Positions 4,088-27,946 of a stretch of 36,473 nucleotides of DNA are shown here, one piece after another. The stretch is from Chloroflexaceae bacterium (lineage in GTDB: Bacteria; Chloroflexota; Chloroflexia; Chloroflexales; Chloroflexaceae). The stretch spans positions 1-36,473 of the forward strand of contig DAOUBZ010000413.1 of NCBI GenBank assembly GCA_034432515.1, in the 5' to 3' direction. Each line of letters opens with the position of its first letter. Position 1 is the stretch's first letter. Position numbers and translations under genes: made by a program. The notes beneath the pieces are model-generated. The model did no database searches and was not told the origin of the DNA. It saw only the letters and a list, made by a program, of their open reading frames with translations.

Positions 4088-4292
4088 GCAGCCAGGGCTA
4101 CGTCACAGTCCGCATCCCGCGGTGGGGTATTGGGCAGCTACGCCGCCCCACGAAGTGATTGTTCGCTGGTGTTGGCGGCTGCGCCGCCAACACCAGCGAA
4201 CAATCAGGGGTCTGGGGCTTGCCCCAAAGACTTTGCGCAAGCCCTGAGGCAGCAGCCAGGACCACGTCACAGTCCGCATCCCGCGGTGGGGT
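4088..4292 (+). repeat. Family-A element copy A2 flanked by a 41-bp direct repeat
   Basis: Perfect 23-bp hairpin 4157-4179 / 4183-4205 (gattgttcgctggtgttggcggc-tgc-gccgccaacaccagcgaacaatc). Module aggggtctggggcttgccccaaagactttgcgcaagccc follows at 4206-4246. The block is bracketed by gcagccagg(g/a)c(t/c)acgtcacagtccgcatcccgcggtggggt at 4088-4128 and 4252-4292 (164-bp period, 2 mismatches). Confidence 0.8.
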
Positions 4293-5734: not shown

Positions 5735-5954
5735 GAGCAACCTGCCTCTCGTTGAGAACCATGACGCGACCGCGTAGTGGCCCGACGCTGGCTGACATTG
5801 CCGAGAAGCGACGCTGCTACTGGGGGGCCGCTCGCGGGGGCGCGGCGCTGCGCCCCGAATGCGGGTGGCGTGTGCCGGGATGGGAAGAATCTACGCTGTC
5901 TGCGACGGCCCTGGGGTGACAGGCTCGCAACCGGGGCTGGCGCTCTGACAACCA

Positions 5955-6007
5955 GGGGGCAAGGTTGAAGCGCCGCACGGGCGGTGCGGCGCTCCAACCT
6001 TGCCCCC
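5955..6007 (-). terminator. Long GC-rich hairpin just downstream of the cNMP-binding gene
   Basis: 24-bp stem with 1 mismatch (gggggcaaggttgaagcgccgcac / gtgcggcgctccaaccttgccccc), 14 nt after the stop at 6021. No clear U-tract, so terminator function is inferred. Confidence 0.45.
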
Positions 6008-6020
6008 CCGGCGGTCGTAG

Positions 6021-6527
6021 CTACGGTTCAACTGAGGCGCCGGCGGCACTGGCCAGCGCCTCAACGTGCAGATCCTGGATGCGGTCGCGGGCGACCTGGG
6101 CGACCCGGAGCAGCAGTTGGTAGCCAAAGGCCGGGTCGCGCTCGATCTGCGCGCGGAGTGCGCCACAATCGATGGCGACGACCCGGCAGGCTTCCTCTGC
6201 GCGGGCGTTGGAGGTGGCCTTGCTGGGCGGCACCAGGGCCGACCAGGCGAAGATGTCGGTGGCCCGGACCACGCTGACGACGATCTCGCGGGCCTGGCCC
6301 GCCTGCGGTGGCAGCACCGAGCGGCTACCCTTCTCGGGCATACTCAGGCTGATCGCCACACTGCCCTCAAGCACCAGGTAGAGCGTGGTCAGATCGTCGC
6401 CCTCGTTGAAGAAGCGGTGCCCGGCCTCAACGGCAAGCTCCTCGGAGGCCATGGCGATGGTCGTGAGCTGATCAGGGCTGAACCCGGCGAAGAACGGATA
6501 GCGGCGCAGTAACTCTGGGGATACCAT
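6021..6527 (-). CDS. Cyclic-nucleotide-binding-domain protein (single domain, no HTH)
   Basis: LLRRYPFFAGFSPDQL...AGHRFFNEGDDLTTLYLVLEGSV...IFAWSAL is a typical cNMP/Crp-type beta-barrel domain. At 168 aa it has no DNA-binding domain. AGGAG lies 5 nt before the ATG at 6527. Confidence 0.75.
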   Translation of the reverse strand: MVSPELLRRYPFFAGFSPDQLTTIAMASEELAVEAGHRFFNEGDDLTTLYLVLEGSVAISLSMPEKGSRSVLPPQAGQAREIVVSVVRATDIFAWSALVPPSKATSNARAEEACRVVAIDCGALRAQIERDPAFGYQLLLRVAQVARDRIQDLHVEALASAAGASVEP

Positions 6528-6562
6528 GGGTGCTCCTGTTGTTGTTCCCTGCCCCCTGGTAG

Positions 6563-6673
6563 GGTGGAGCGGTGGAGCTGGAAAAACACCTCGACACCTT
6601 CACACCTCGACACCTCCACACCTCCACACCTCCACACCTCCACACCCCTACAGCTCACACCTCCACACCCCCA
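6563..6673. repeat. 8-nt tandem array E1 (CACCTCCA on + strand, TGGAGGTG on the transcribed minus strand)
   Basis: 11 consecutive 8-nt units at 6587-6673. Five are perfect CACCTCCA; variants include CACCTCGA and CACCTTCA. Two inverted units, GGTGGAGC GGTGGAGC (6563-6578), and an A5 run precede them. The array overlaps the last codons and stop of the protease gene. Confidence 0.9.
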
Positions 6674-7146
6674 GGGGGCAGCACCTCGGCCAGCACGGCG
6701 GCGACCGCAGCGGGGATCGCGGCCGCGACGGGAGGTGTGGGCTCTTCACTGAAGTCGAGCACGTCGGTCACGGTGATCGCATAGATCACCAACTCCTCGG
6801 GCAGCGGCAGGCCCATCTGCCGGCCGAGGGCCATGGCGATAGCGAGGCTGGTATCGTGGGGCGAGACGCTCCGCTCGGTCGGCTGCAGCGCCTGGATGTC
6901 GCCCAGGCTCAGGCGGAGCAGGCTGCCCGGAGCCTGATCCGAGCGGCAGAGCGCATCGATCAGGATGGCGCGCTCGTAGCCGATCAGGAGCTCCATCAGC
7001 GCCAGGCCACCGACTGCGGCCGTTGCGACCTCCGCCGGCGGACGGGGCAGCGGCGCCAGCGCGGCGCCCACTGCCTCGGCCACACGCACGCCGACCGCGT
7101 CGTCGGTAAGGATGGAATTGCCAAGCCCGAGTACGAGCGTTCGCAT
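6655..7146 (-). CDS. [NiFe] hydrogenase maturation endopeptidase (HyaD/HybD/FrhD family)
   Basis: MRTLVLGLGNSILTDDAVGVRV carries the GxGNxxxxDDxxG motif. Size is about 160 aa and it lies immediately downstream of the large subunit. ATG at 7146, preceded by AGGTGA. Confidence 0.8.
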   Translation of the reverse strand: MRTLVLGLGNSILTDDAVGVRVAEAVGAALAPLPRPPAEVATAAVGGLALMELLIGYERAILIDALCRSDQAPGSLLRLSLGDIQALQPTERSVSPHDTSLAIAMALGRQMGLPLPEELVIYAITVTDVLDFSEEPTPPVAAAIPAAVAAVLAEVLPPGGVEV

Positions 7147-7155
7147 GATGGTCAC

Positions 7156-8646
7156 CTAGTCTACGTACTGGCTCAACCGCTGCAGTTCGGCCCCGGCGGC
7201 GTCGCGGATCACGACCTCGAGCGGCATCTGGCCGGGCAGGGCGTGGGTTGCGCAGCCGAAGCAGGGGTCGTAGGCGCGGAAGCCCATCTCAATGCGGTTG
7301 AGCAGTCCCTCGGTGATCACCGTGCCTTTCTGGATCAGGCCCATGGCGGCCTTCTTGACCGACATGGCGATTGGAGCGTAGTTGTTGGTGGTGCCGACGA
7401 TCAGGTTGACCCGGGTGAGGATGCCGCGCTCGTCGGTCCAGTAGTGGTGAGTGAGCGTGCCACGCGGCGCCTCGACCGAGCCGACGCCCTCGGTGGGGGT
7501 GGTGGTGATCGGCGCGCGGACGCGCGGGTCGGTGATCTCGGGGTCGGTGGCCAGTTCGAGCATGCGCTCGGCGGCATAGAGCAGTTCGACCAGCCGCGCC
7601 CAGTGGGTGGCCAGGCGGAAGTGGACCGGCTGGTAGCGCCCGTTGACCCGCTTGCTGCCCAGCGTCTCGTAGAACTTCTCGTAGGCCTCCTGCGCGCGTG
7701 GCGTGGCCATGCCGTCGGCGGCGTTGAGCCGCGAGAGCGGCGTGGCGGTGTACACACCGCTCGCCTTGCCGTCCTCGAAGCCCTTCCAGCCGATGTCCTT
7801 GAGGTACGGGAACTTCAGGTAGGTCCAGGTCTCGCTGTGCTCGGCGATGTGTTTGGCGTAGTCGCGGGGATGATACTTCACATACTCGGCGCCATCCGGA
7901 TCGACCACACGGATCATGCCGTCGTAGAAATTGGCGTGGTTGTTGGCGTCAACCGTGCCCATCGAGTAGGTGCGGTGGGTGAAGGTATCGGAGAGGATGA
8001 GCTCGACGTACTGTGGATTGCCCAGCACCAGGTCCTCGAACAGCTTGAGGCTGAAGAGGGCGAAGTCCACATTCTGGCGCGCAACCTCCTCGACGGCCTG
8101 GCGCTCATCAGCTGAGATGGCCTTGCTCCAGCCGCCGGGCAGCCCGGCGACCGGGTGGACGCCGCGGCCGCCGAGCATCCTGATCACGCGGTGATTGCGC
8201 ACGCGGGCGTCGATCACCTGCTTGCCGATCTCGAGGCCCACCTTGTGCACCACGCCAAGGATGTTGCGCTCGGCGGGGGGCGCATCGGGACCCATCACGA
8301 AGTCGGGCCCGGCCAGGGCGTAGAAGTGCGTGGTATGGTCGGCCACATAGAAGGCCGAGTAGAACATCTCACGCAGCTTCTTCGCCACCGGCGGGGGATC
8401 AACGTGAAACAGGGCGTCGAGTGTCTTGGTCGAGGCGATGTGGTGGGCCTCCGGGCAAACGCCGCAGATCCGGTCGGTGATGCGCGGCATCTCCTCGGCG
8501 GGCCGGCCCACGCAGAACTGCTCGAAGCCGCGCAACTCGGGCACAATGAAGTAGGCGTTGGCCACGTCACCCTCATCGTTGAGGAAAATATCGATCCGGC
8601 CGTGGCCCTCCAGCCGGGTGACGGGATCGATCGTGATTCGTTTCAT
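7156..8646 (-). CDS. mvhA: [NiFe] hydrogenase large subunit, Mvh/group-3c-like
   Basis: N-terminal RLEGHG and RICGVCPEAHH motifs. C-terminal DPCFGCATH nickel-binding motif, followed by a 28-aa tail (substrate for the adjacent protease). GAAGGAG SD 7 nt before the ATG. Lies in an hdrABC-mvhD context. Confidence 0.9.
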   Translation of the reverse strand: MKRITIDPVTRLEGHGRIDIFLNDEGDVANAYFIVPELRGFEQFCVGRPAEEMPRITDRICGVCPEAHHIASTKTLDALFHVDPPPVAKKLREMFYSAFYVADHTTHFYALAGPDFVMGPDAPPAERNILGVVHKVGLEIGKQVIDARVRNHRVIRMLGGRGVHPVAGLPGGWSKAISADERQAVEEVARQNVDFALFSLKLFEDLVLGNPQYVELILSDTFTHRTYSMGTVDANNHANFYDGMIRVVDPDGAEYVKYHPRDYAKHIAEHSETWTYLKFPYLKDIGWKGFEDGKASGVYTATPLSRLNAADGMATPRAQEAYEKFYETLGSKRVNGRYQPVHFRLATHWARLVELLYAAERMLELATDPEITDPRVRAPITTTPTEGVGSVEAPRGTLTHHYWTDERGILTRVNLIVGTTNNYAPIAMSVKKAAMGLIQKGTVITEGLLNRIEMGFRAYDPCFGCATHALPGQMPLEVVIRDAAGAELQRLSQYVD

Positions 8647-8657
8647 ACGCGTCTCCT

Positions 8658-9656
8658 TCAGGTGCCGCTTTCGGCGACGCGCACGCGCCGCAGCAACGAG
8701 TGGGCCAGGCTGAAACGGTAGAAGGTGCCGGCCGGGTCGGCCAGCGTATCCATCACCGCGGCGATCGCGTGCTCCTGCTCGGCCTCATCCAGGTCGGGAC
8801 CGCCGGCGGCCACCACCGAGGCGATCGCCGAGAGCATACGCGCGCCCTGGTCCTGGCCATCGAGCGGGCCGTAGCAGCCCTCGCAGCGCATGCCCACCTG
8901 GGGGCAGAGAGCGCCACAGCCGCTGCGTGTGGCCGGGCCCATACAGACCAGACCCTGCTCAAGCAGGCAGATGCCCGGCTCCGGAACCAGTTCGTAGGGC
9001 CGGTAGAAACGGGTAATCTGCTTGACATTCTTGGCCAGCGGGCACTCCTCGCAGACCGCGACGGTGCCCGCGCCAATTACCTTGCCGCCCGGGGCCGGCA
9101 GCGGCACGCCGCTGATCACCGCCTGGATGACCGCAGCGATCTGGTGCGCCTCCGGCGGACAGCCAGGGATGATGTAGTCTACCGGGACGACCTGGTCGAG
9201 GGCGCGCACCGTCTCGTAGAGCACCGGGATGCGGATCTCACCTTCCGGGACCACACTCACCGGCTGGGGCAGCCGGTCACGGGTCTCATCGGCGGTTAGG
9301 CAGTCGGTATAGATCGTGCGCATGGTGGCGGCGTTGGTCGTCAGGTTGGCCAGCCCGGGGGCGCAGCCCTCGTAGGCGCACGAGCCGAATGCGACCAGGG
9401 TCTTCGATTTGCGGCGCAGCAGGTGCGCAAGCTCCTCGTTCTCCGAGTTGCGGATGGCGCCGTTGAACAGACACAGGTCGATGTAGCCGTCGGGGTAGCC
9501 TTCGACGTCGCTGTACTTGAAGTCGGCCACGCAGGGCCAGAAGACCACCTGAAAGGCGGCATCGACGTCCAGGATCTTCTCGCCGATATTGAGCAGCGAG
9601 ATCTCGCAGCCGCCGCACGAGGCGGCCCAATACATCGCGAAGGTAGGCTTCGCCAT
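8658..9656 (-). CDS. mvhG: [NiFe] hydrogenase small subunit, Mvh/group-3-like, cytoplasmic
   Basis: MAKPTFAMYWAASCGGCEISLLN has the proximal-cluster Cys motif at the N-terminus and no twin-arginine signal. Multiple further Cys clusters. GAGGAG 7 nt before the ATG at 9656 (the track start at 9671 has no SD). Confidence 0.85.
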   Translation of the reverse strand: MAKPTFAMYWAASCGGCEISLLNIGEKILDVDAAFQVVFWPCVADFKYSDVEGYPDGYIDLCLFNGAIRNSENEELAHLLRRKSKTLVAFGSCAYEGCAPGLANLTTNAATMRTIYTDCLTADETRDRLPQPVSVVPEGEIRIPVLYETVRALDQVVPVDYIIPGCPPEAHQIAAVIQAVISGVPLPAPGGKVIGAGTVAVCEECPLAKNVKQITRFYRPYELVPEPGICLLEQGLVCMGPATRSGCGALCPQVGMRCEGCYGPLDGQDQGARMLSAIASVVAAGGPDLDEAEQEHAIAAVMDTLADPAGTFYRFSLAHSLLRRVRVAESGT

Positions 9657-9685
9657 AGCGACTCTCCTCACTTCGGCGGGGAGAG

Positions 9686-9728
9686 GGTGTCGAGCTGTGG
9701 AGGTGTGGAGCTGTGGAGGTATGGAGCG
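9686..9728. repeat. 8-nt tandem array E2, reverse complement of E1
   Basis: GGTGTCGA GCTGTGGA GGTGTGGA GCTGTGGA GGTATGGA on the + strand. Its reverse complement matches an E1 stretch at about 32 of 35 positions. It lies in the 142-nt mvhD-mvhG spacer. Confidence 0.85.
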
Positions 9729-9798
9729 ACGGCGCTATCCGTCGGGGCGCCCGGATTCTCTCCACACTGCTACCGTTCTCCGCCTCCACCCGTCTCCC

Positions 9799-10269
9799 TC
9801 ATCCTCCAACCTCCGCCTCAGCCACGCGGTGCGTCACCGCTCGCTCGCCGAGGACCGTCTCGCGCCAGCGCAACGGCCCGAGGGCGCGCAGTTCTTCGGT
9901 CATACGATCCACAGCCTCGGCCAACTGCTTGCCCTCGGAGGCAGCGGCCCAGACCAGTTGCACACGGGCCTCTTCGATGCCGAACTGGCGCAGCAGCGCC
10001 TTGAGCAGGGTAAAGCGGCGCAGGGCCTTGATATTGCCCTCGACATAGTGGCACTCGCCGGGATGGCAACCGGCGATCAGCACGCCGTCGGCGCCCTCGC
10101 GCAGCGCCTTGAGCACGAACTCGGGCTCAACGCGGGCGGTACACATCACGCGGATGGGGCGCATAGTCGGCGCGTAGTGGATGCGCGCCGTGCCGGCGAG
10201 GTCGGCCGCCCGGTAGGAGCACCAGTTGCAGAGGAAGCCGACGATGATCGGTTGGAAATCGTTCTCCAC
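9799..10269 (-). CDS. mvhD: Methyl-viologen-reducing hydrogenase delta subunit (MvhD) family protein
   Basis: GFLCNWCSY and CHPGECHY motifs, about 150 aa, directly after hdrA. GTG start with GGAGG 6 nt upstream. Confidence 0.9.
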   Translation of the reverse strand: MENDFQPIIVGFLCNWCSYRAADLAGTARIHYAPTMRPIRVMCTARVEPEFVLKALREGADGVLIAGCHPGECHYVEGNIKALRRFTLLKALLRQFGIEEARVQLVWAAASEGKQLAEAVDRMTEELRALGPLRWRETVLGERAVTHRVAEAEVGG

Positions 10270-10281
10270 GGTGTACCTCCT

Positions 10282-12348
10282 CTACGCCGGCTCCAGCCAG
10301 AGCACGTCGGGCTGGCGCGCATCCCACAGAATGCCTTCGATCTGGGCCATCACCTGGTCGCGGGTGAAGTGTGCGCCGCTGATCGCCGCACTGGGGCAAG
10401 CGGCCACGCAGGCGCCGCAGCCCTGGCAGAGCGCGGTGAGCACCTCGGAGACCCGGCGATCCTCGTGGTAGACGATCGCGTGATAGGGGCAGAGGTTGTT
10501 GCAGATGCGGCACCCGGAGCAGGCGTCGGCGTCGATGCTGGCCCGCACCGGCTCCATCTTCATCGTACGCTGGCCGATCATGCCGGCCACCCGCGCCGCC
10601 GCTGCCGAGCCCTGGGCCACCGACTCGGGGATGGCCTTGGGACCCTGGCAGGCCCCGGCGATCAGGATGCCCTCGGTCATGGTCACCACCGGGTCGAGCT
10701 TGGCGTGCCGCTCGGTGAACCAGCCCTCAAAGTCGCAGCCGAGCCCGAAGAGGTTGGCCACCTGCCGCGCGTCCTTGCGTGCCTCCATGCCGGCCATGAG
10801 GATGACCATATCGACGGGGATGCGGCGCTGCTTGCCGATCAGCGTATCCTCGACCTGGATGATCAGCTGGCCCTCCTCGCCCGGGCCACGGGCGGCGTCG
10901 GTTACCTCGGCCACCCGCCCACGGATGAGGTGGGCGCCCTCGTTGAGCACGCGGTGGTAGAACTCCTCGTAGTGCTTGCCGGCCGCGCGGATATCGATAT
11001 AGAAGTTGAACACCTCGGCCTCGGGCACCCGCTCGTGCACCAGGTGGGCGAACTTGAGCGCGGCCATGCAGCAGGCCCGCGAGCAGTACTCGTGGTACTT
11101 CTTGTCGCGCGAACCGACACAGTGGATGATCCCGACCCGCTTGGGCGCGGTGACGCCATCGCGCAGCACGACGCGGCCCGCGGTGGGTCCGGCCGCATTG
11201 ACCATGCGCTCGAACTCCATGCTGGTGAACACATTGGCGAGGCGCCCGTAGCCGTACTGCGGGATCGTGCGGGCATCGAACTGCTCGTAGCCGGTGGCGA
11301 GGATGATGTTGCCGACCTCAAGATCGACGATCTCGTCCTTCTGGTTGAAATCGATCGCATCGGTCGGGCAGACGATCTCACAGGCCCGGCACTTGCCGCG
11401 CTGGAAGAAGGTGCAGTTGTCGGGATCGATCACCGGATACTTAGGAATGGCCTGCGGGAAGTTGCGGTAGACCGCCTTGCGGTAGCCGAGGCCCACCTCG
11501 AAGTTCTGGTCGATGATGCGTACTGGACACTTCTCAACACAGGTCCCGCAGCCGGTGCAGAGATCCTCGTTGATGAAGCGGGCCCGCTTGCGCACACGCA
11601 CACTGAAGTTGCCGACATAGCCGTGGACCGAAAGGACCTCGCTCCAGGTCATCAGGGTCACGTTGGGATGGTTCTCCACGTCCACCATCTTGGGCGTCAG
11701 GATGCAGGCAGCGCAGTCGAGCGTCGGGAAGGTCTTATCGAGCTTGGCCATATGGCCGCCGATCGACGAGTCGCGTTCGACGAGGTAGACGTGGTAGCCG
11801 GCGTTGGCCAGTTCGAGCGCCGCGGTGAGCCCGGCGATCCCGCCGCCGACCACCAGCGTATTGGGGTTGATATCGACATAGAGCGGATCGAGCGGGCGCT
11901 GGAGCGCCGCCCGCTCGATCGCACCCTTGACCTGGGCCTTGGCCTTCTGGGTAGCCGCCTCGCGATCATCGGTGGCCCACGAGCCAAGCTCGCGGATGTT
12001 GGCCATCTCGAAGAGGAAGGGATTCAGGCCGGCCCGCTGGCAGGTATTGCGGAAGGTCTTCTCGTGCATGTGGGGCGAGCAGGCCGCGACCACGACCCGG
12101 TTGAGGCCACGCTCCTTGATATCCTGCTCGATCAACTCCTGGCCGAGGCTGGAGCACATGAACTTATAGTCGCGGGCGACGGTGACATGGTCCTGCCCGC
12201 CGGCCCACTCGGCCACTTCATCAACCGCCACCGTATTGGCGATGTTGTGGCCACAGTGGCACACATACACGCCAACGCGCGGCTCCTGCTCGGCGCCCGG
12301 CGCCCCGTGGGGGCTGCCCCGGGTGCGATCGGCATGCTCGGGGCTCAT
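10282..12348 (-). CDS. hdrA: Heterodisulfide reductase subunit A-like flavo-iron-sulfur protein
   Basis: FAD Rossmann motif VVGGGIAGLTAALELANAGYHVYLVE. Four ferredoxin-type motifs: CTGCGTCVEKCP, CRACEIVCP, CSGCRICNNLCP and CQGCGACVAACP. The start lies 2 nt after the hdrB stop, and the hdrB C-terminal codons GAGGAGGAA provide the SD. Confidence 0.9.
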   Translation of the reverse strand: MSPEHADRTRGSPHGAPGAEQEPRVGVYVCHCGHNIANTVAVDEVAEWAGGQDHVTVARDYKFMCSSLGQELIEQDIKERGLNRVVVAACSPHMHEKTFRNTCQRAGLNPFLFEMANIRELGSWATDDREAATQKAKAQVKGAIERAALQRPLDPLYVDINPNTLVVGGGIAGLTAALELANAGYHVYLVERDSSIGGHMAKLDKTFPTLDCAACILTPKMVDVENHPNVTLMTWSEVLSVHGYVGNFSVRVRKRARFINEDLCTGCGTCVEKCPVRIIDQNFEVGLGYRKAVYRNFPQAIPKYPVIDPDNCTFFQRGKCRACEIVCPTDAIDFNQKDEIVDLEVGNIILATGYEQFDARTIPQYGYGRLANVFTSMEFERMVNAAGPTAGRVVLRDGVTAPKRVGIIHCVGSRDKKYHEYCSRACCMAALKFAHLVHERVPEAEVFNFYIDIRAAGKHYEEFYHRVLNEGAHLIRGRVAEVTDAARGPGEEGQLIIQVEDTLIGKQRRIPVDMVILMAGMEARKDARQVANLFGLGCDFEGWFTERHAKLDPVVTMTEGILIAGACQGPKAIPESVAQGSAAAARVAGMIGQRTMKMEPVRASIDADACSGCRICNNLCPYHAIVYHEDRRVSEVLTALCQGCGACVAACPSAAISGAHFTRDQVMAQIEGILWDARQPDVLWLEPA

Positions 12349-22391: not shown

Positions 22392-23315
22392 ATGTCCAGC
22401 GAGTCTCCGATCCAGCTGATCGTCGCGGCCTTTCAGAAGGAGGATGCCGCCGATGCCGCACTGAACGCGATCATCCAGGCGAAGAAGGAGCGCCTGGTGA
22501 AGATCCACGAGGCGGCCGTTGTGCGCCGTGACCCGGGCGGCAAGCTGCACATCATCGAGCGTGGCGACCTTGGCCCCGGTGCCGGCGCGGCCAGCGGCGC
22601 GGCCCTGGGCGCGGTTGTCGGCCTCTTCGGCGGCCCGATCGGCGCGCTGCTCGGTGGCGCGGCAGGCGCGGCAATCGGCGGCATTGCTGCCAAGCTGATC
22701 GACACGGGCATCCCCGACGACCGCCTGCGGCAGATCGGCTCGGCGCTACAGCCCGGCACCTCGGCGATCGTGGCGATGATCGAGCACGCCTGGGTCAGCG
22801 AGATCCAGGACGAGCTGCAGCGCGCCGGTGGCAACCTGCTCGCCGCAGCGATCACCGAAGATGTCAAGAACCAGCTGGCCGCCGGCAAGGACGTGGCCTA
22901 CAGCGCGGTTACCGCTGCCGGTGGCACGATCGCCGGGCGGGTCAGCGCCGGGGAGGAGGGCGTCACACTGCAGGGGCTGGCCACCGACGGCCAGAACCTC
23001 GTCGCCGGCGCGTTCACGGCGGTGAAAGAGGCGGCCGGCGAGGCAGCCGAAACTGCGAAGGACGTCGCCAGCGAGGCGACCGAGGCGGTCAAGGAGGCGG
23101 CCGGCGAGGCAGCCGAATCCGCGAAGGACGTCGCCAGCGAGGCGACCGAGGCGGTGAAGAAAGCGGCCGGCGAGGCAGCCGAAACCGCGAAGGACGTCGC
23201 CAGAGAGGCGACCGAGGCGGTGAAGAAAGCGGCTGGCGAGGCAGCCGAAACCGGGAAGGACGTCGCCAGCGAGGCGACCGAGGCGGTGAAGAAAGCGGCC
23301 GACGAGAAGAAGTAG
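22392..23315 (+). CDS. DUF1269-like glycine-zipper membrane protein with C-terminal 22-aa tandem repeats
   Basis: N-terminal IQLIVAAFQKEDAADAAL..., Gly-zipper GAGAASGAALGAVVGLFGGPIGALLGGAAGAAIGGIAA and second half GIPDDRLRQIGSALQPGTSAIVAMIEH (DUF1269 pattern). C-terminus has 4.4 copies of VK(E/K)AAGEAAETAKDVASEATEA. AAGGAG lies 6 nt before the ATG. Confidence 0.75.
   Translation: MSSESPIQLIVAAFQKEDAADAALNAIIQAKKERLVKIHEAAVVRRDPGGKLHIIERGDLGPGAGAASGAALGAVVGLFGGPIGALLGGAAGAAIGGIAAKLIDTGIPDDRLRQIGSALQPGTSAIVAMIEHAWVSEIQDELQRAGGNLLAAAITEDVKNQLAAGKDVAYSAVTAAGGTIAGRVSAGEEGVTLQGLATDGQNLVAGAFTAVKEAAGEAAETAKDVASEATEAVKEAAGEAAESAKDVASEATEAVKKAAGEAAETAKDVAREATEAVKKAAGEAAETGKDVASEATEAVKKAADEKK
23022..23312 (+). 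repeat. In-frame 66-nt tandem repeat (4.4 copies) inside the DUF1269-like CDS
   Basis: Four near-identical 66-nt units (a few substitutions each) plus a partial fifth. They encode an Ala/Glu/Lys-rich amphipathic 22-mer. Confidence 0.9.
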
Positions 23316-26824: not shown

Positions 26825-26886
26825 CACGCGCTATGATACCACGGCGCCCGGTTGCAATTGGGTACGTGAGGGTTGCAGGATGCGTT

Positions 26887-27012
26887 GAGGCGATGACCCG
26901 AGGACGCGACGACGCGAGGAGGCGATGACCCGAGGACGCGACGACGCAACGCGGCCCGATGCCGTCGTCGCGTCCTCGCATCCTCGCCGCACCGCCTCCT
27001 CGCCTCATCACC
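26887..27012. repeat. Family-D repeat: 29-nt unit duplicated at 32-nt period, plus an inverted copy
   Basis: gaggcgatgacccgaggacgcgacgacgc at 26887-26915 and 26919-26947. cgaggacgcgacgacg (26931-26946) pairs with cgtcgtcgcgtcctcg (26963-26978). Shares aggatgcg.. and cgtcctcgc(a/t)tc.. motifs with 23966-24023. Confidence 0.8.
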
Positions 27013-27016
27013 GGCC

Positions 27017-27754
27017 TCAAAGCGGCCGGGCGGTGGGGATGGCTTCGAGCGAACTGAAGATCGGCACGGCCTGGCCGAGGCTGAGGCCGTCCAGGGTGAG
27101 TGGGCAGAGGTAGGCGTACGCCTCGACCCCGGCGGTGATCGCGGTGCGCAGGGCGCGGCCAAACTCGGGGTCAACGTCGTCGGGCACGAGGGCCCGCGCG
27201 CTGTGGCGCTGGATGACGAAGATCACCGCGGCGCGCTGGCCGCTGCGGGCCATCTGGGTGAGAGCCATGAGGTGGCGGCGGCCACGCTCGGTGGGCGCGT
27301 CGGGGAAGCGGGCCAGCCCGTCCTCGACTTTGCTGACCGACTTGACCTCGACGACGCAGGTGTTGATCCCCTCGCTCAGGCGGAAGTCGAACCGATGCTC
27401 GCCGATCTGCACCTCACGCTGCACGCGGGTGTAGCGGGCAAACTGCGGTAGCGCTCCGGCCGACAGCGCGGCGACGACCAGCCGGTTCGGCAGGTGGGTA
27501 TCGAGTGAAACCAGTTCGCCGTGGTGGTAGACCCCCACCACCTGAAAGCCCGTCTTGCGCCCGAGCTCTTCGCGGGGAGCGAGCAACAGCCGCACGCCGG
27601 GACTCAGCAGATCGAGCAGGCGCCCGCGGTCAGCCAGATGCGCGCGCACCATTCGCCGGCCCAGCCGCGCCTCAACCACCAGCTGATTGGGGCGTGCCAC
27701 AAAGTCTGCCTCTACCAGCGGGCCGCTGGAGGTGAGGGGAACTCGTACGAGCAT
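27017..27754 (-). CDS. sfsA: SfsA-family protein (sugar fermentation stimulation protein; OB fold plus PD-(D/E)xK-like domain)
   Basis: [33 protein letters not shown]...[15 protein letters not shown]...[15 protein letters not shown] matches the SfsA pattern. ATG at 27754 (MLVRVPL). The upstream part of the track ORF crosses repeat A4. Confidence 0.85.
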
Positions 27755-27829: not shown

Positions 27830-27946
27830 TCGGGCGGCGACGCCGCCCGACAAGGTGTTATCTCGTTGGTTCTGGCGGCGAAGCCGCCAGAACCAACGAG
27901 ATAACCTGGGGTTTGGGGCTTGCCACAAAGACGTTGCGCACGCCCC
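27830..27946 (+). repeat. Family-A element, best-preserved copy (A4)
   Basis: Hairpin 0: tcgggcggcg-a-cgccgcccga (27830-27850). Hairpin 1: perfect 23-bp stem gttatctcgttggttctggcggc-gaa-gccgccagaaccaacgagataac (27857-27905). Module: ctggggtttggggcttgccacaaagacgttgcgcacgcccc (27906-27946). Confidence 0.85.

Follow-up and report, generated by a model that had tools for sequence, protein, structure and literature searches.

A tract of Shine-Dalgarno-like octamers between hydrogenase protease and cNMP-binding genes belongs to a dispersed, palindromic repeat family of Chloroflexaceae

A run of Shine-Dalgarno (SD)-like octamers lies between the genes for a hydrogenase maturation protease and a cNMP-binding protein in a 36,473-nt stretch of Chloroflexaceae DNA, referred to here as the window. 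We report that this run is a copy, dominated by its G-rich arm, of a lineage-specific family of dispersed intergenic octamer repeats. The comparisons below establish its membership in the family, the dispersal of the copies, their palindromic architecture and polarity, the derived nature of the insertion and the turnover of units and copy number. We consider it likely, with a probability of roughly 0.7, that the tract is a microsatellite-like or STRR-like repeat and not a ribosome-capture device; effects on expression would then be by-products, and ribocapture would not be what the repeat was selected for.

Layout of the protease/cNMP junction

The minus strand is the sense strand for both flanking genes, and on it the array reads (GGAGGUGU)n. 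The features of the junction are listed below; positions are those of the window.

6655-7155, minus strand: upstream gene, HycI-family hydrogenase maturation protease (Pfam PF01750, alignment)
6021-6527, minus strand: downstream gene, cNMP-binding-domain protein of 168 aa (Pfam PF00027, E = 5e-11; no other domain found with Pfam)
6586-6673, minus strand: G-arm of 11 octamers (GGAGGUGU)n, with variants CGAGGTGT, GAAGGTGT and GGGGGTGT and one 15-nt interruption, gagctgtaggggtgt (Tandem Repeats Finder [TRF], pattern matches, sequence)
6655-6673, minus strand: segment common to the array and the end of the protease ORF, whose final GGVEV and TGA stop come from the array (open reading frame [ORF] list, sequence, protease alignment)
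6579-6585, minus strand: short loop between the arms, with a U5 run at 6581-6585 (sequence)
6563-6578, minus strand: degenerate C-arm of two inverted units, GGTGGAGC twice on the plus strand and GCUCCACC twice in the mRNA (TRF, sequence)
6549-6574: left arm of a bracketing inverted repeat, CTGCCCCCTGGTAGGGTGGAGCGGTG, pairing with 6656-6681 and enclosing the array (26 nt, 81% complementary; inverted-repeat search)
6656-6681: right arm of the same repeat, CACACCTCCACACCCCCAGGGGGCAG (inverted-repeat search, fold)
6533-6537, minus strand: SD of the cNMP gene itself, AGGAG, lying 5 nt upstream of the ATG (sequence)
5955-6007, minus strand: 24-bp hairpin (96%) immediately 3' of the cNMP stop codon (inverted-repeat search)

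TRF reports the array at 6586-6673 with a period of 8, 11.1 copies, 82% matches, a score of 120 and the plus-strand unit ACACCTCC. Five of the 11 tandem units are perfect copies of CACCTCCA, starting at 6611, 6619, 6627, 6635 and 6658, and units with one mismatch start at 6587, 6595, 6603 and 6666. Matches with at most one mismatch number 71 across the window against 32.7 +/- 5.4 in shuffles, with the surplus centred on this array. These counts agree with a preliminary description of the locus, which had reported 11 SD-like units, five of them perfect, in a noncoding repeat of period 8 on the mRNA strand, together with a U5 run and two inverted units; it had placed the start at 6563, where the inverted units lie, whereas the array proper begins at 6586. 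It had also described the array as beginning in the last protease codons and ending about 60 nt before the cNMP gene. The protease ORF indeed ends in ...PPGGVEV* with TGA at 6655-6657, so that about 2.5 of the first array units are coding, and 58 nt separate the array end (6586) from the cNMP ATG (6527-6525). The start codon of the protease is likely the ATG at 7146. Searches for identical proteins gave no record for either the protease or MvhD of the window. Homologues of the cNMP-binding protein are widespread in Chloroflexota, and the hairpin downstream of its gene, which shows a compensatory A-T to C-G change relative to the related sequence L117, probably marks the 3' end of the transcript. 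The SD of the cNMP gene, which had not figured in the preliminary description, is kept as (A)GGAGG in the relatives L088, L120, L123 and L125, the last of which lacks an array.

The two inverted units at 6563-6578 read, from their sequence, as the decayed partner of the G-arm. A strong local hairpin was considered for this copy and rejected, as the spacer folds no better than shuffled sequences (z = +0.24), which we attribute to the decay of the C-arm; the outer 11-bp stem of the bracketing repeat is present in both the MFE and the centroid folds. Since the C-arm is degenerate, most of the SD-like units at this junction are predicted to be unpaired. The U5 run sits in the loop and not 3' of a stem, unlike the arrangement of an intrinsic terminator with its GC-rich stem-loop and U-tract. 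A terminator scan of 5800-10400 found no U-tract terminator-like site at either this array or a second one described below, a sigma-70 scan found no promoter hexamers at either, and Rfam 15 at the gathering score gave zero matches anywhere in the window.

Orthologous junctions and the dispersed family

In five related lineages the orthologous protease/cNMP junction contains an array of 7 to 18 units, and the variant units differ. The window has about 11 to 12 units, L120/L122 have 13 to 14, L088 has 10 plus 6, L002 has at least 7 and L123 has 18 plus 4; the relatives are short-read metagenome-assembled genomes (MAGs) or metagenome contigs, in which repeats are prone to collapse and chimeric joins, so that exact copy numbers are uncertain. 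L120 and L122 are two assemblies of one species, with equal unit numbers. All of these arrays sit at the same protease codon (L120/L122 show 93% nucleotide identity), and the stop is at the same codon in the window (TGA) and L120 (TAG). Variant units are lineage specific: CGAGGTGT in the window, AGAGGTGT in L120, CGAGGTGT/TGAGGGGT in L088 and GGGGGTGT in L123. At the position of the C-arm, L117 and L120 have GCTCCACC GCGCCACA, and L088 and L123 have four to six clear ACACCTCC-type units. The syntenic but more distant L125, L126 and L128 have zero array units, their genes being separated by 53 nt, separated by 17 nt and overlapping by 14 nt, respectively. The array-free relatives as a whole comprise L125 to L130. 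Arrays in close relatives and none in these three indicate that the array is a derived, slippage-prone insertion. The comparison of orthologous spacers that had been proposed thus returned an array of varying copy number in close relatives, with sequence and copy number unconstrained and the array absent farther away. The array nevertheless persists at this junction though the flanking genes are only 75 to 93% identical between lineages, which may signal more than neutrality. The GGAGGTG at the junction of L128 raised the idea that the array grew out of the cNMP SD; this was set aside, as array-bearing genomes keep the SD of array-free L125 downstream of the array.

Alignment with array-free relatives shows that protease homology extends as far as ...AAVLAEV/L, a few codons short of the GGVEV that the array encodes, and that the proteases of these relatives carry unrelated tails of 13 to 22 aa. 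In the history that we propose, a copy of the repeat would have entered the protease/cNMP junction in an ancestor of a GC-rich Chloroflexaceae subclade, overwriting the nonconserved C-terminal tail of the protease and supplying a new stop codon. Units would later have been gained and lost by slipped-strand events and homogenised within the array, and in the lineage of the window the C-arm would have decayed to two degenerate units. Two formerly abutting cistrons would now lie about 130 nt apart, with a strong intercistronic stem-loop between them in relatives and a mostly unpaired purine-rich tract in the window copy.

Two further elements occur in the window.

9672-9798: second copy of the family, which occupies the spacer between mvhD and the small-subunit gene; plus-strand G-arm at 9683-9727 with unit GGTGTGGA/GCTGTGGA and degenerate C-arm at about 9760-9798 (TRF 9686-9727, sequence)
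26845-27032: related intergenic palindrome with period-8/32 units GAGGCGAT GACCCGAG GACGCGAC GACGCGAG, purine-rich arm first (TRF rows 26887-27006, inverted repeats)

The second copy, also absent from the preliminary description, is opposite in orientation to the first, so that the mRNA contains an anti-SD-like arm just upstream of the small-subunit SD. It folds with z = -2.4 and is conserved in L120/L122 and absent from L088, L002, L123 and L125; among the lineages compared, only the window and L120/L122 have an element at this junction. The large-subunit/protease junction shows a different distribution, with an element in L088, L002 and L123 and none in the window, L120 or L125. The palindrome at 26845-27032 folds at -125.8 kcal/mol (z = -7.05).

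When 185,579 species genomes were scanned for three perfect units, at least 116 loci matched, and 87 of the matches listed fall in eight Chloroflexales MAGs. Among the matches listed, these MAGs hold 31, 22, 10, 7, 7, 6, 3 and 1 loci, many at contig ends, and the hosts are Chloroflexaceae/Oscillochloridaceae MAGs; similar arrays also occur in Bacteroidota (Roseivirgaceae, Bizionia). The same three units matched viral contigs once, in a giant-virus MAG, and there is no evidence of phage carriage. Within 560 kb of family loci, 113 of 268 tandem repeats have a period of 8, and 95 of these 113 are built from an octamer unit of the family. Most often the elements are imperfect palindromes of the form (GGAGGTGT)n-loop-(ACACCTCC)m, in which the G-rich arm comes 5' whichever strand is read; the G-arm precedes the C-arm in 38 cases and follows it in 5 (binomial p = 2.5e-7). 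The predicted folds of orthologous copies are much more stable than those of shuffled sequences (z = -4.4 and -11). The loops between the arms range from 0 to 106 nt across family members and have no common motif, and a comparison of loops and outer flanks found no shared motif, the octamer alone being conserved. Variant units differ between the two arms, which are not mirror images of one another. The most variable unit positions are 1, 3 and 5 of GGAGG (15%, 12% and 15%), and hence the SD core is not preferentially conserved.

Genes around the elements were called with a crude GC3-based caller. By this measure, 59 of the 74 elements that could be assessed fall in the gaps between genes, and the apparently intragenic ones proved, where checked, to be gene junctions or caller artefacts. 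Neighbouring genes are co-directional for 40 elements, convergent for 14 and divergent for 5, and elements occur in either orientation relative to genes. In co-directional contexts, the sense strand is richer in G-units for 27 elements and in C-units for 12 (p = 0.024, with the crude gene calls). Elements often begin at or inside the upstream stop codon; in co-directional spacers, nearness to the stop rather than the start (24 versus 15) is not significant (p = 0.27).

A MITE- or REP-type mobile unit was rejected for want of conserved flanks, loops or target-site duplications; neither such duplications nor conserved ends were found in the family loci, and no enzyme was associated with the octamer in the contig fragments examined. 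With no transposition signature and no associated enzyme, the spread to new sites is left without a mechanism. Pure slippage explains neither the G-arm-first polarity (38:5) nor the G-unit bias of the sense strand (27:12), and both could reflect selection at the RNA level. An alternative origin for the polarity is also conceivable: if templated synthesis added repeats to both 3' ends at a double-strand break and the ends were then rejoined, the product would have a G-rich strand running 5' to 3' toward the centre on both strands.

Alternative functions of the repeat

The preliminary description had proposed a ribosome standby, sponge or coupling device specific to this locus, and this finds no support in the wider data. 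In a few Chloroflexales MAGs the array recurs at tens of further junctions in each genome, in both orientations to transcription (the second copy in the window being anti-SD-like in the mRNA), and family members usually have an inverted partner arm by which the SD-like units would be sequestered; moreover, the syntenic L125, L126 and L128 lack it, and the cNMP gene retains its own SD 58 nt downstream.

Of the functional readings, a selected intercistronic RNA stem-loop survives best, and even this we regard as unlikely. Such a stem-loop could stabilise the mRNA, serve as an RNase III site, act as a pause site or terminator, or shield the C-rich, G-free arm from Rho. The very stable hairpins of the family (z = -11, -4.4 and -7), the frequent start of elements at or within the upstream stop codon and the rarity of divergent contexts (5 versus 14 convergent) are all in keeping with it, as is the arm order, by which a transcript, whichever side it enters from, reaches the G-arm before the C-arm, and the latter pairs upon synthesis. 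STRR hairpins in hup operons, for which roles in transcript stability and translational coupling have been proposed, offer a precedent (PMC2670836). For REP/BIME-type elements such a role has been demonstrated. However, the protease/cNMP copy itself has a fold z of +0.24, the variant units of one arm are not mirrored in the other, no U-tract terminator was detected, the proximity to stops over starts is not significant, and syntenic relatives lack the element.

Binding of an exposed (GGAGGUGU)n to the 16S anti-SD, whether as a 30S standby site, as a ribosome sponge, as a tether for ribosomes at termination or by protecting the cNMP message in the manner of STAB-SD, is in our view improbable. 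Several points are in its favour: a two-unit stretch is predicted to pair with the canonical anti-SD tail at -13.4 kcal/mol, compared with -6.6 for the gene's own SD, most units at this junction are predicted to be unpaired, and the array starts at a stop codon, where terminating ribosomes are released. The anti-SD of the organism, which the preliminary description had allowed might lack CCUCC, is very probably canonical, as GGAG/GAGG precedes 9 of 26 predicted starts against a background of 11%, which makes SD use evident in the window, and the anti-SD of the class Chloroflexia is CCUCCUUU (PMC10783764). A noninitiating SD in a 5' untranslated region (UTR), the STAB-SD, provides a precedent as it is summarised in a later paper (Agaisse and Lereclus 1996, cited in PMC7509114), and the sense-strand bias of 27:12 leans in the same direction. 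The same ratio nevertheless means that about one-third of co-directional copies, including the second copy in the window, place the anti-SD-like strand in the mRNA. In most copies the partner arm sequesters the SD-like units, the SD-core positions are the most variable, syntenic relatives manage without an array, and similar arrays occur in Roseivirgaceae and Bizionia, members of the Bacteroidota, whose ribosomes do without SD use (PMC10783764). STAB-SD and standby sites do resemble the repeat in being SD-like sequences that lie in untranslated RNA at a distance from the start codon and can bind 30S subunits, as the citing paper presents them (Agaisse and Lereclus 1996, cited in PMC7509114). 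They are single, position constrained and orientation dependent, whereas the octamer family consists of arrays in both orientations, usually sequestered and variable in copy number and position; the sense-strand, mostly unpaired protease/cNMP copy may still have a local effect on 30S binding.

About as doubtful is a broader proposal, that the family represents an undescribed class of intercistronic or 3'-end elements whose architecture is under selection at the level of RNA, R-loops or G-quadruplexes. An SD-mimicking (GGAGGUGU)n arm directly after the stop would be followed by a pairing, anti-SD-mimicking, C-rich and G-free arm, the two acting as a ribosome tether or as a mask over a Rho-loading site, with the ratio of the arms tuning the outcome.

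Much less probable is a long-range RNA clamp, in which the C-arm of the second element (9680-9727, in the same transcript) would form a duplex with the G-arm at 6586-6673 and loop out 3 kb containing the small-subunit, large-subunit and protease genes. Stems that form over a distance are familiar from rRNA processing. RNAduplex gives -82.7 kcal/mol for this pairing, whereas the two arms reach -38.0 and -45.3 with their degenerate local partners, and the closest relative, L120/L122, has retained both elements; pairing of an anti-SD-like 3' UTR with the 5' UTR in icaR is a precedent (PMC3868564). Yet a similar energy is expected from any two oppositely oriented family copies, L088, L002 and L123 have no second element and their arrays pair locally, and translation of the intervening 3 kb of coding RNA, on a transcript whose unity is itself putative, would disrupt the clamp.

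The slippage-prone contingency tract of the preliminary description, toggling protease or cNMP expression within a population, can be set aside as highly improbable: orthologous arrays do differ in length between lineages (about 11 to 12, 13 to 14, 10, at least 7 and 18 units) and an 8-nt unit that is not a multiple of 3 overlaps the protease ORF end, but the array lies 3' of the conserved part of the protease, where a stop follows shortly in every register, and 5' of the cNMP SD, neither between promoter hexamers nor inside the ORF, while L120 and L122, one species, have the same number of units and the family occupies tens of unrelated junctions.

Relation to known repeats and significance

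The reading that we favour, a microsatellite-like or STRR-like repeat, has its nearest counterpart in cyanobacteria. STRR sequences include heptamer hairpins between hupS and hupL in filamentous cyanobacteria, where transcript stability or translational coupling has been proposed as their role (PMC2670836). The octamer family shares with them short-unit tandem arrays in many dispersed copies (three MAGs have at least 31, 22 and 10 loci with three or more perfect units) that are mostly intergenic and lineage specific, hosts that are filamentous phototrophs, hairpins where arrays are inverted and a presence in hydrogenase operon spacers. Unlike STRR1-3, which are defined by a heptamer, it has a unit of 8 nt that amounts to a full SD (GGAGGUG) and whose complement is the 16S 3' end; it is strictly G-arm-first, and it intrudes into coding 3' ends and supplies stop codons. 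As its hosts are Chloroflexaceae/Oscillochloridaceae and not the heterocystous or filamentous cyanobacteria that harbour STRR, the family is analogous to STRR and not a member of it.

Species-specific dispersed satellites, such as (GATAGRA)n in Chloroflexus aurantiacus and (AGGGGAGT)2 in Mesorhizobium ciceri, are likewise short-unit families of one or a few related genomes in which the unit is conserved and a transposition-like spread is suspected (Subirana and Messeguer 2019, PMC6749651). The octamer differs from these in its unit, in inverted arms and polarity that are not described for satellites, and in spanning several related species with site-specific gain and loss. REP/BIME elements, which include the enterobacterial REP and have REP-like counterparts in other palindromic repeat families, are also extragenic, high-copy and palindromic, often sit directly after stops between convergent or co-directional genes and form mRNA stem-loops. 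The octamer family resembles them in being extragenic, high-copy, palindromic and often located right after stops, but it has neither a unique palindromic unit of 20 to 40 nt nor conserved ends, and its arms are tandem 8-mer arrays with many possible pairing registers. A full-text literature search with the unit sequence returned primers and other noise only, and on these limited searches the family appears to be undescribed.

Taken together, a genome-scale repeat story replaces that of a single-locus ribosome sponge ahead of a cNMP regulator. Short-read assemblies break at members of the family, which may also give rise to deletions or chimeric joins; an apparent protease deletion in L124 and an apparent hisS-array-cNMP join in L121 are candidates, and users of MAGs should be cautious about contig ends and joins at octamer arrays. 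Within a small GC-rich clade of Chloroflexaceae, it colonises gene junctions, rewrites protein C termini and stop codons and separates formerly coupled cistrons. The role of STRR-like repeats has been a question since the 1990s, and the strict G-arm-first polarity of the octamer family, together with the identity of its arms with SD and anti-SD sequences, could make it a tractable model for their function.

Repeat copies in the hydrogenase operon

The minus-strand genes of the window, in the order hdrB-like, hdrA-like, mvhD, small subunit, large subunit, protease, cNMP and gltD-like, constitute an Hdr/Mvh-type [NiFe]-hydrogenase cluster. The features relevant here are the following:

6655-7155, minus strand: HycI-family hydrogenase maturation protease
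6021-6527, minus strand: cNMP-binding protein
6586-6673: tandem octamer array at the protease/cNMP junction
9672-9798: second array, filling the 127-nt mvhD/small-subunit spacer
26845-27032: third intergenic element, a large palindrome with related period-8/32 units

Tandem Repeats Finder reports the junction array with period 8, 11.1 copies, 82% matches, a score of 120 and the + strand unit ACACCTCC. Five units are perfect CACCTCCA copies (starts 6611, 6619, 6627, 6635 and 6658), with one-mismatch units on either side, confirming the octamer tract with five perfect units claimed in the preliminary description. Since both flanking genes lie on the minus strand, the mRNA reads (GGAGGUGU)n. At its C-terminus the protease ORF reads ...PPGGVEV*, the TGA lying at 6655-6657; approximately the first 2.5 units are therefore coding, and 58 nt separate the array end from the cNMP ATG, which is preceded at 5 nt by an AGGAG of its own. 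An origin within the last protease codons, an end about 60 nt before the cNMP gene, and a U5 run with two inverted units farther along the mRNA had likewise been described, and all are present, the degenerate units (GCUCCACC x2) at + strand 6563-6578.

The second array, absent from that description, spans 9683-9727, where its + strand unit is GGTGTGGA/GCTGTGGA, and is accompanied by a degenerate inverted arm. Its orientation is opposite to that of the junction array, and in the mRNA it places a strand resembling the 16S 3' end (CUCCACACCUCCACAG...) directly upstream of the small-subunit Shine-Dalgarno (SD) sequence. The palindrome at 26845-27032 consists of the units GAGGCGAT GACCCGAG GACGCGAC GACGCGAG x2 followed by their complement, with the purine-rich arm first, as in the octamer family described below; its fold is -125.8 kcal/mol (z = -7).

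Other repeats were observed in the window. Right after the cNMP stop, a near-perfect 24-bp hairpin (5955-6007; 96% complementary arms), with a compensatory A-T to C-G change relative to the related contig L117, probably marks the transcript 3' end. Hairpins at 4156-4206 and 27857-27905, with 100% complementary arms of 23-24 bp and similar arms ending GGCGGC/GCCGCC, could be terminators or could form another small repeat family. A 66-nt tandem repeat at 23018-23306 (4.4 copies, 93% matches), within ORF 22392-23315 (+), is presumably a 22-residue coding repeat.

A dispersed octamer family in Chloroflexales

Direct evidence gives us high confidence that the window tract belongs to an octamer family that is dispersed, palindromic and prone to slippage, and that its insertion at the protease/cNMP junction was secondary. 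A scan of 185,579 species-representative genomes with three perfect units, (GGAGGTGT)3, returned at least 116 loci. Eight Chloroflexales MAGs account for 87 of those listed, with copy numbers that are lower bounds: SKW209 (at least 31), H89_884 (at least 22), H28_384 (at least 10), L1_Bin_127_1 and the Kiruna Oscillochloris (at least 7 each), L.E.CH.39_1 (at least 6), umkhey_bin13 (at least 3) and one Roseiflexaceae MAG (at least 1). Contig ends coincide with many of these loci, which would be expected of repeats that disrupt assembly. In 560 kb from the Chloroflexales MAGs, period 8 accounts for 113 of 268 tandem repeats; 95 of the 113 are the family unit and the others near variants, e.g., ACAGCTCC and ACATCTCC.

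From the Chloroflexales loci and the window, 116 elements were delimited. Two-arm elements run from a G-arm (SD-like units as read) to a C-arm (inverted, anti-SD-like units), (GGAGGTGT)n-loop-(ACACCTCC)m, in 38 cases and in the reverse order in 5 (binomial p = 2.5e-7). This layout is its own reverse complement, and the G-rich arm is therefore 5' on both strands. The 63 single-arm elements are often cut by contig ends. Opposing arms often consist of different variant units, e.g., GGAGGTGT versus ACAGCTCT, making their pairing imperfect. Among the delimited elements, the loops (0 to 106 nt) share no common sequence and the outer flanks nothing except the unit, and a MITE- or REP-type element with conserved ends was rejected on these grounds.

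Genes were called with a crude GC3-based method that reproduces the window gene map. By these calls, 40 elements are co-directional with their neighbors, 14 lie in convergent and 5 in divergent contexts, and 15 appear intragenic, the inspected members of this last class being caller artefacts or gene junctions. The perfect unit has a stop codon in none of six frames, and the stops that end upstream ORFs come from the variant units TGAGGTGT, GGAGGTGA and TAGAGGTG. One of the inspected intragenic cases, L007 (7710-7768), has six in-frame units, together 48 nt or 16 codons (…TSTPPHLHTSTPPHLHTP…), at a cbiG/cbiH-like junction, where they may fuse two ORFs.

The other 29 listed loci are one or few copies in unrelated bacteria, including Roseivirgaceae, Bizionia, Planctomycetota, Zymobacter, Shinella and Streptomyces. 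In low-GC Bacteroidota (L010, L040 and L044, Roseivirgaceae MAG; L078, Bizionia myxarmorum), intergenic GGAGGTGT arrays also contain GGAGTTGT, GGATGGA and further short units rich in G; this may be another lineage that acquired such a repeat habit independently. Two "Bacteroidota bacterium" contigs (L057 and L094; 69% GC, typical family arrays) look like Chloroflexaceae sequence binned into the wrong MAG. In a Dehalococcoidia MAG (L102, OY730226.1, ~1014-1210), a CRISPR array with repeat GTTTCCCCCGCACACGCGGGGATAGACC has a 33-nt spacer, GTATC(GGAGGTGT)3GGAG, and some of the DNA it targets must thus contain this octamer array. Among viral contigs, a scan gave one match only, a giant-virus MAG.

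Three known kinds of repeat are closest. Cyanobacterial STRR are heptamers, still without proven function, that form hairpins in hydrogenase operon spacers (PMC2670836), as the octamer family also does, although it differs from them in taxon and unit length. It resembles REP/BIME palindromes functionally but departs from REP in the conserved unit, and it is hence an analogue, not a member, of STRR or REP. The third kind, catalogued by Subirana and Messeguer, comprises dispersed satellites that are species-specific, among them a heptamer family of Chloroflexus aurantiacus (PMC6749651). Limited searching of the literature found no prior description of the octamer family.

Insertion and turnover at orthologous junctions

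Over the operon, the window shares 75-88% nucleotide identity with H89_884 (L088) and SKW209 (L002), and 92.9% over 5.2 kb with metagenome contig Ga0272446_1001547 (L117/L120), of which DAOTXT010000416 (L122) is a further representation. Further relatives were gathered via cNMP-protein homologs.

Protease/cNMP junctions of the window and relatives. Percentages give the identity of each cNMP protein to that of the window; every relative is a short-read MAG or a metagenome contig, in which array lengths may be collapsed.
Window: ~11-12 G-units and 2 degenerate C-units
L120/L122 (94%): 13-14 G-units, AGAGGTGT variants; TAG replaces TGA at the same codon
L088: 10 G-units (CGAGGTGT/TGAGGGGT) and 6 C-units; hairpin z = -4.4
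L002: at least 7 units; the contig end falls in the array
L123 (74%): 18 G-units and 4 C-units
L125 (71%): no array; 53-nt spacer
L126 (65%): no array; 17-nt spacer
L128 (61%): no array; 14-nt gene overlap

Related spacers, whose comparison had been proposed in the preliminary description, vary from at least 7 to 18 units where an array is present, and three have no array. The protease alignment holds as far as ...AAVLAEV/L; array-bearing proteases stop a few residues later, in array-encoded GGVEV, whereas array-free ones continue into unrelated tails of 13-22 residues. Together, these patterns indicate that the junction was once tight and that the array is a derived insertion into it, kept in a single subclade and turning over in copy number and unit type. 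Neighboring junctions behave likewise: the large-subunit and protease genes are ~9 nt apart in the window and L120 and are separated by a hairpin array in L088 (z = -11), L002 and L123 (21 G-units), and among the compared loci the mvhD/small-subunit element occurs only in the window and L120/L122.

Two contigs, whose joins may be chimeric, show apparent rearrangements at arrays. L124 (5870-6010), apparently from the same population as L123 (5070-6010), lacks the whole protease gene, with the junction inside GGGGGTGT runs of the two arrays that bracket this gene in L123; this is either array-mediated deletion or assembly collapse. In L121 (JACAEO010000157.1, 9860-10010), a cNMP protein 100% identical to that of L120 is preceded by hisS and an array, not the hydrogenase operon, through either recombination at arrays or a chimeric join through the repeat.

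Possible functions of the array

A functional reading draws on the strong G-first polarity of the family, on co-directional elements, whose sense strand is richer in G-units in 27 cases and poorer in 12 (p = 0.024, with the crude gene calls; a bias, not a rule), and on the persistence of the junction array across lineages only 75-93% identical. The better of two such proposals, a selected intercistronic stem-loop, nevertheless appears improbable. The window spacer folds at -69.3 kcal/mol, not better than shuffles (z = +0.24), and the only helices that persist in it are an outer 11-bp stem (CUGCCCCCUGG/CCAGGGGGCAG) and short GUGGAG:CUCCAC helices.

Consequently, most SD-like units are predicted to be unpaired, unlike those of L088 or L123, and a two-unit stretch is predicted to pair with a canonical anti-SD tail at -13.4 kcal/mol, versus -6.6 for the cNMP gene's own SD, which makes a local effect on 30S binding physically plausible. 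That the array acts as an SD mimic, in line with the ribosome standby or sponge site first proposed, is less probable still. Unit variability is highest at GGAGG positions 1, 3 and 5 (15%, 12% and 15%), with G2, G4 and G7 most constant, which is not what selection for anti-SD pairing would give, and similar arrays are present in Bacteroidota, a phylum in which ribosomes make no use of SD (PMC10783764). SD usage is evident in the window lineage, where 9 of 26 predicted starts follow GGAG/GAGG/AGGA versus 11% background; with the canonical anti-SD of class Chloroflexia (PMC10783764), this makes the noncanonical 16S 3' end that had been allowed for very improbable.

Two further ideas are unlikely. 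The array G-arm and the second element's C-arm, which lies 3 kb farther upstream on that strand, are predicted to pair at -82.7 kcal/mol, more strongly than either does with its local partner (-38 and -45 kcal/mol for the two arms); however, L088, L002 and L123 lack the second element, and we regard this long-range clamp as very improbable and the pairing as a by-product of two oppositely oriented family copies. A contingency locus is the least credible suggestion.

Taken together, we assign a probability of roughly 0.7 to the combined statement that the array belongs to the octamer family and that its role is largely neutral or selfish. The repeat would then be carried by these bacteria largely without benefit, and any effects on expression would be by-products.
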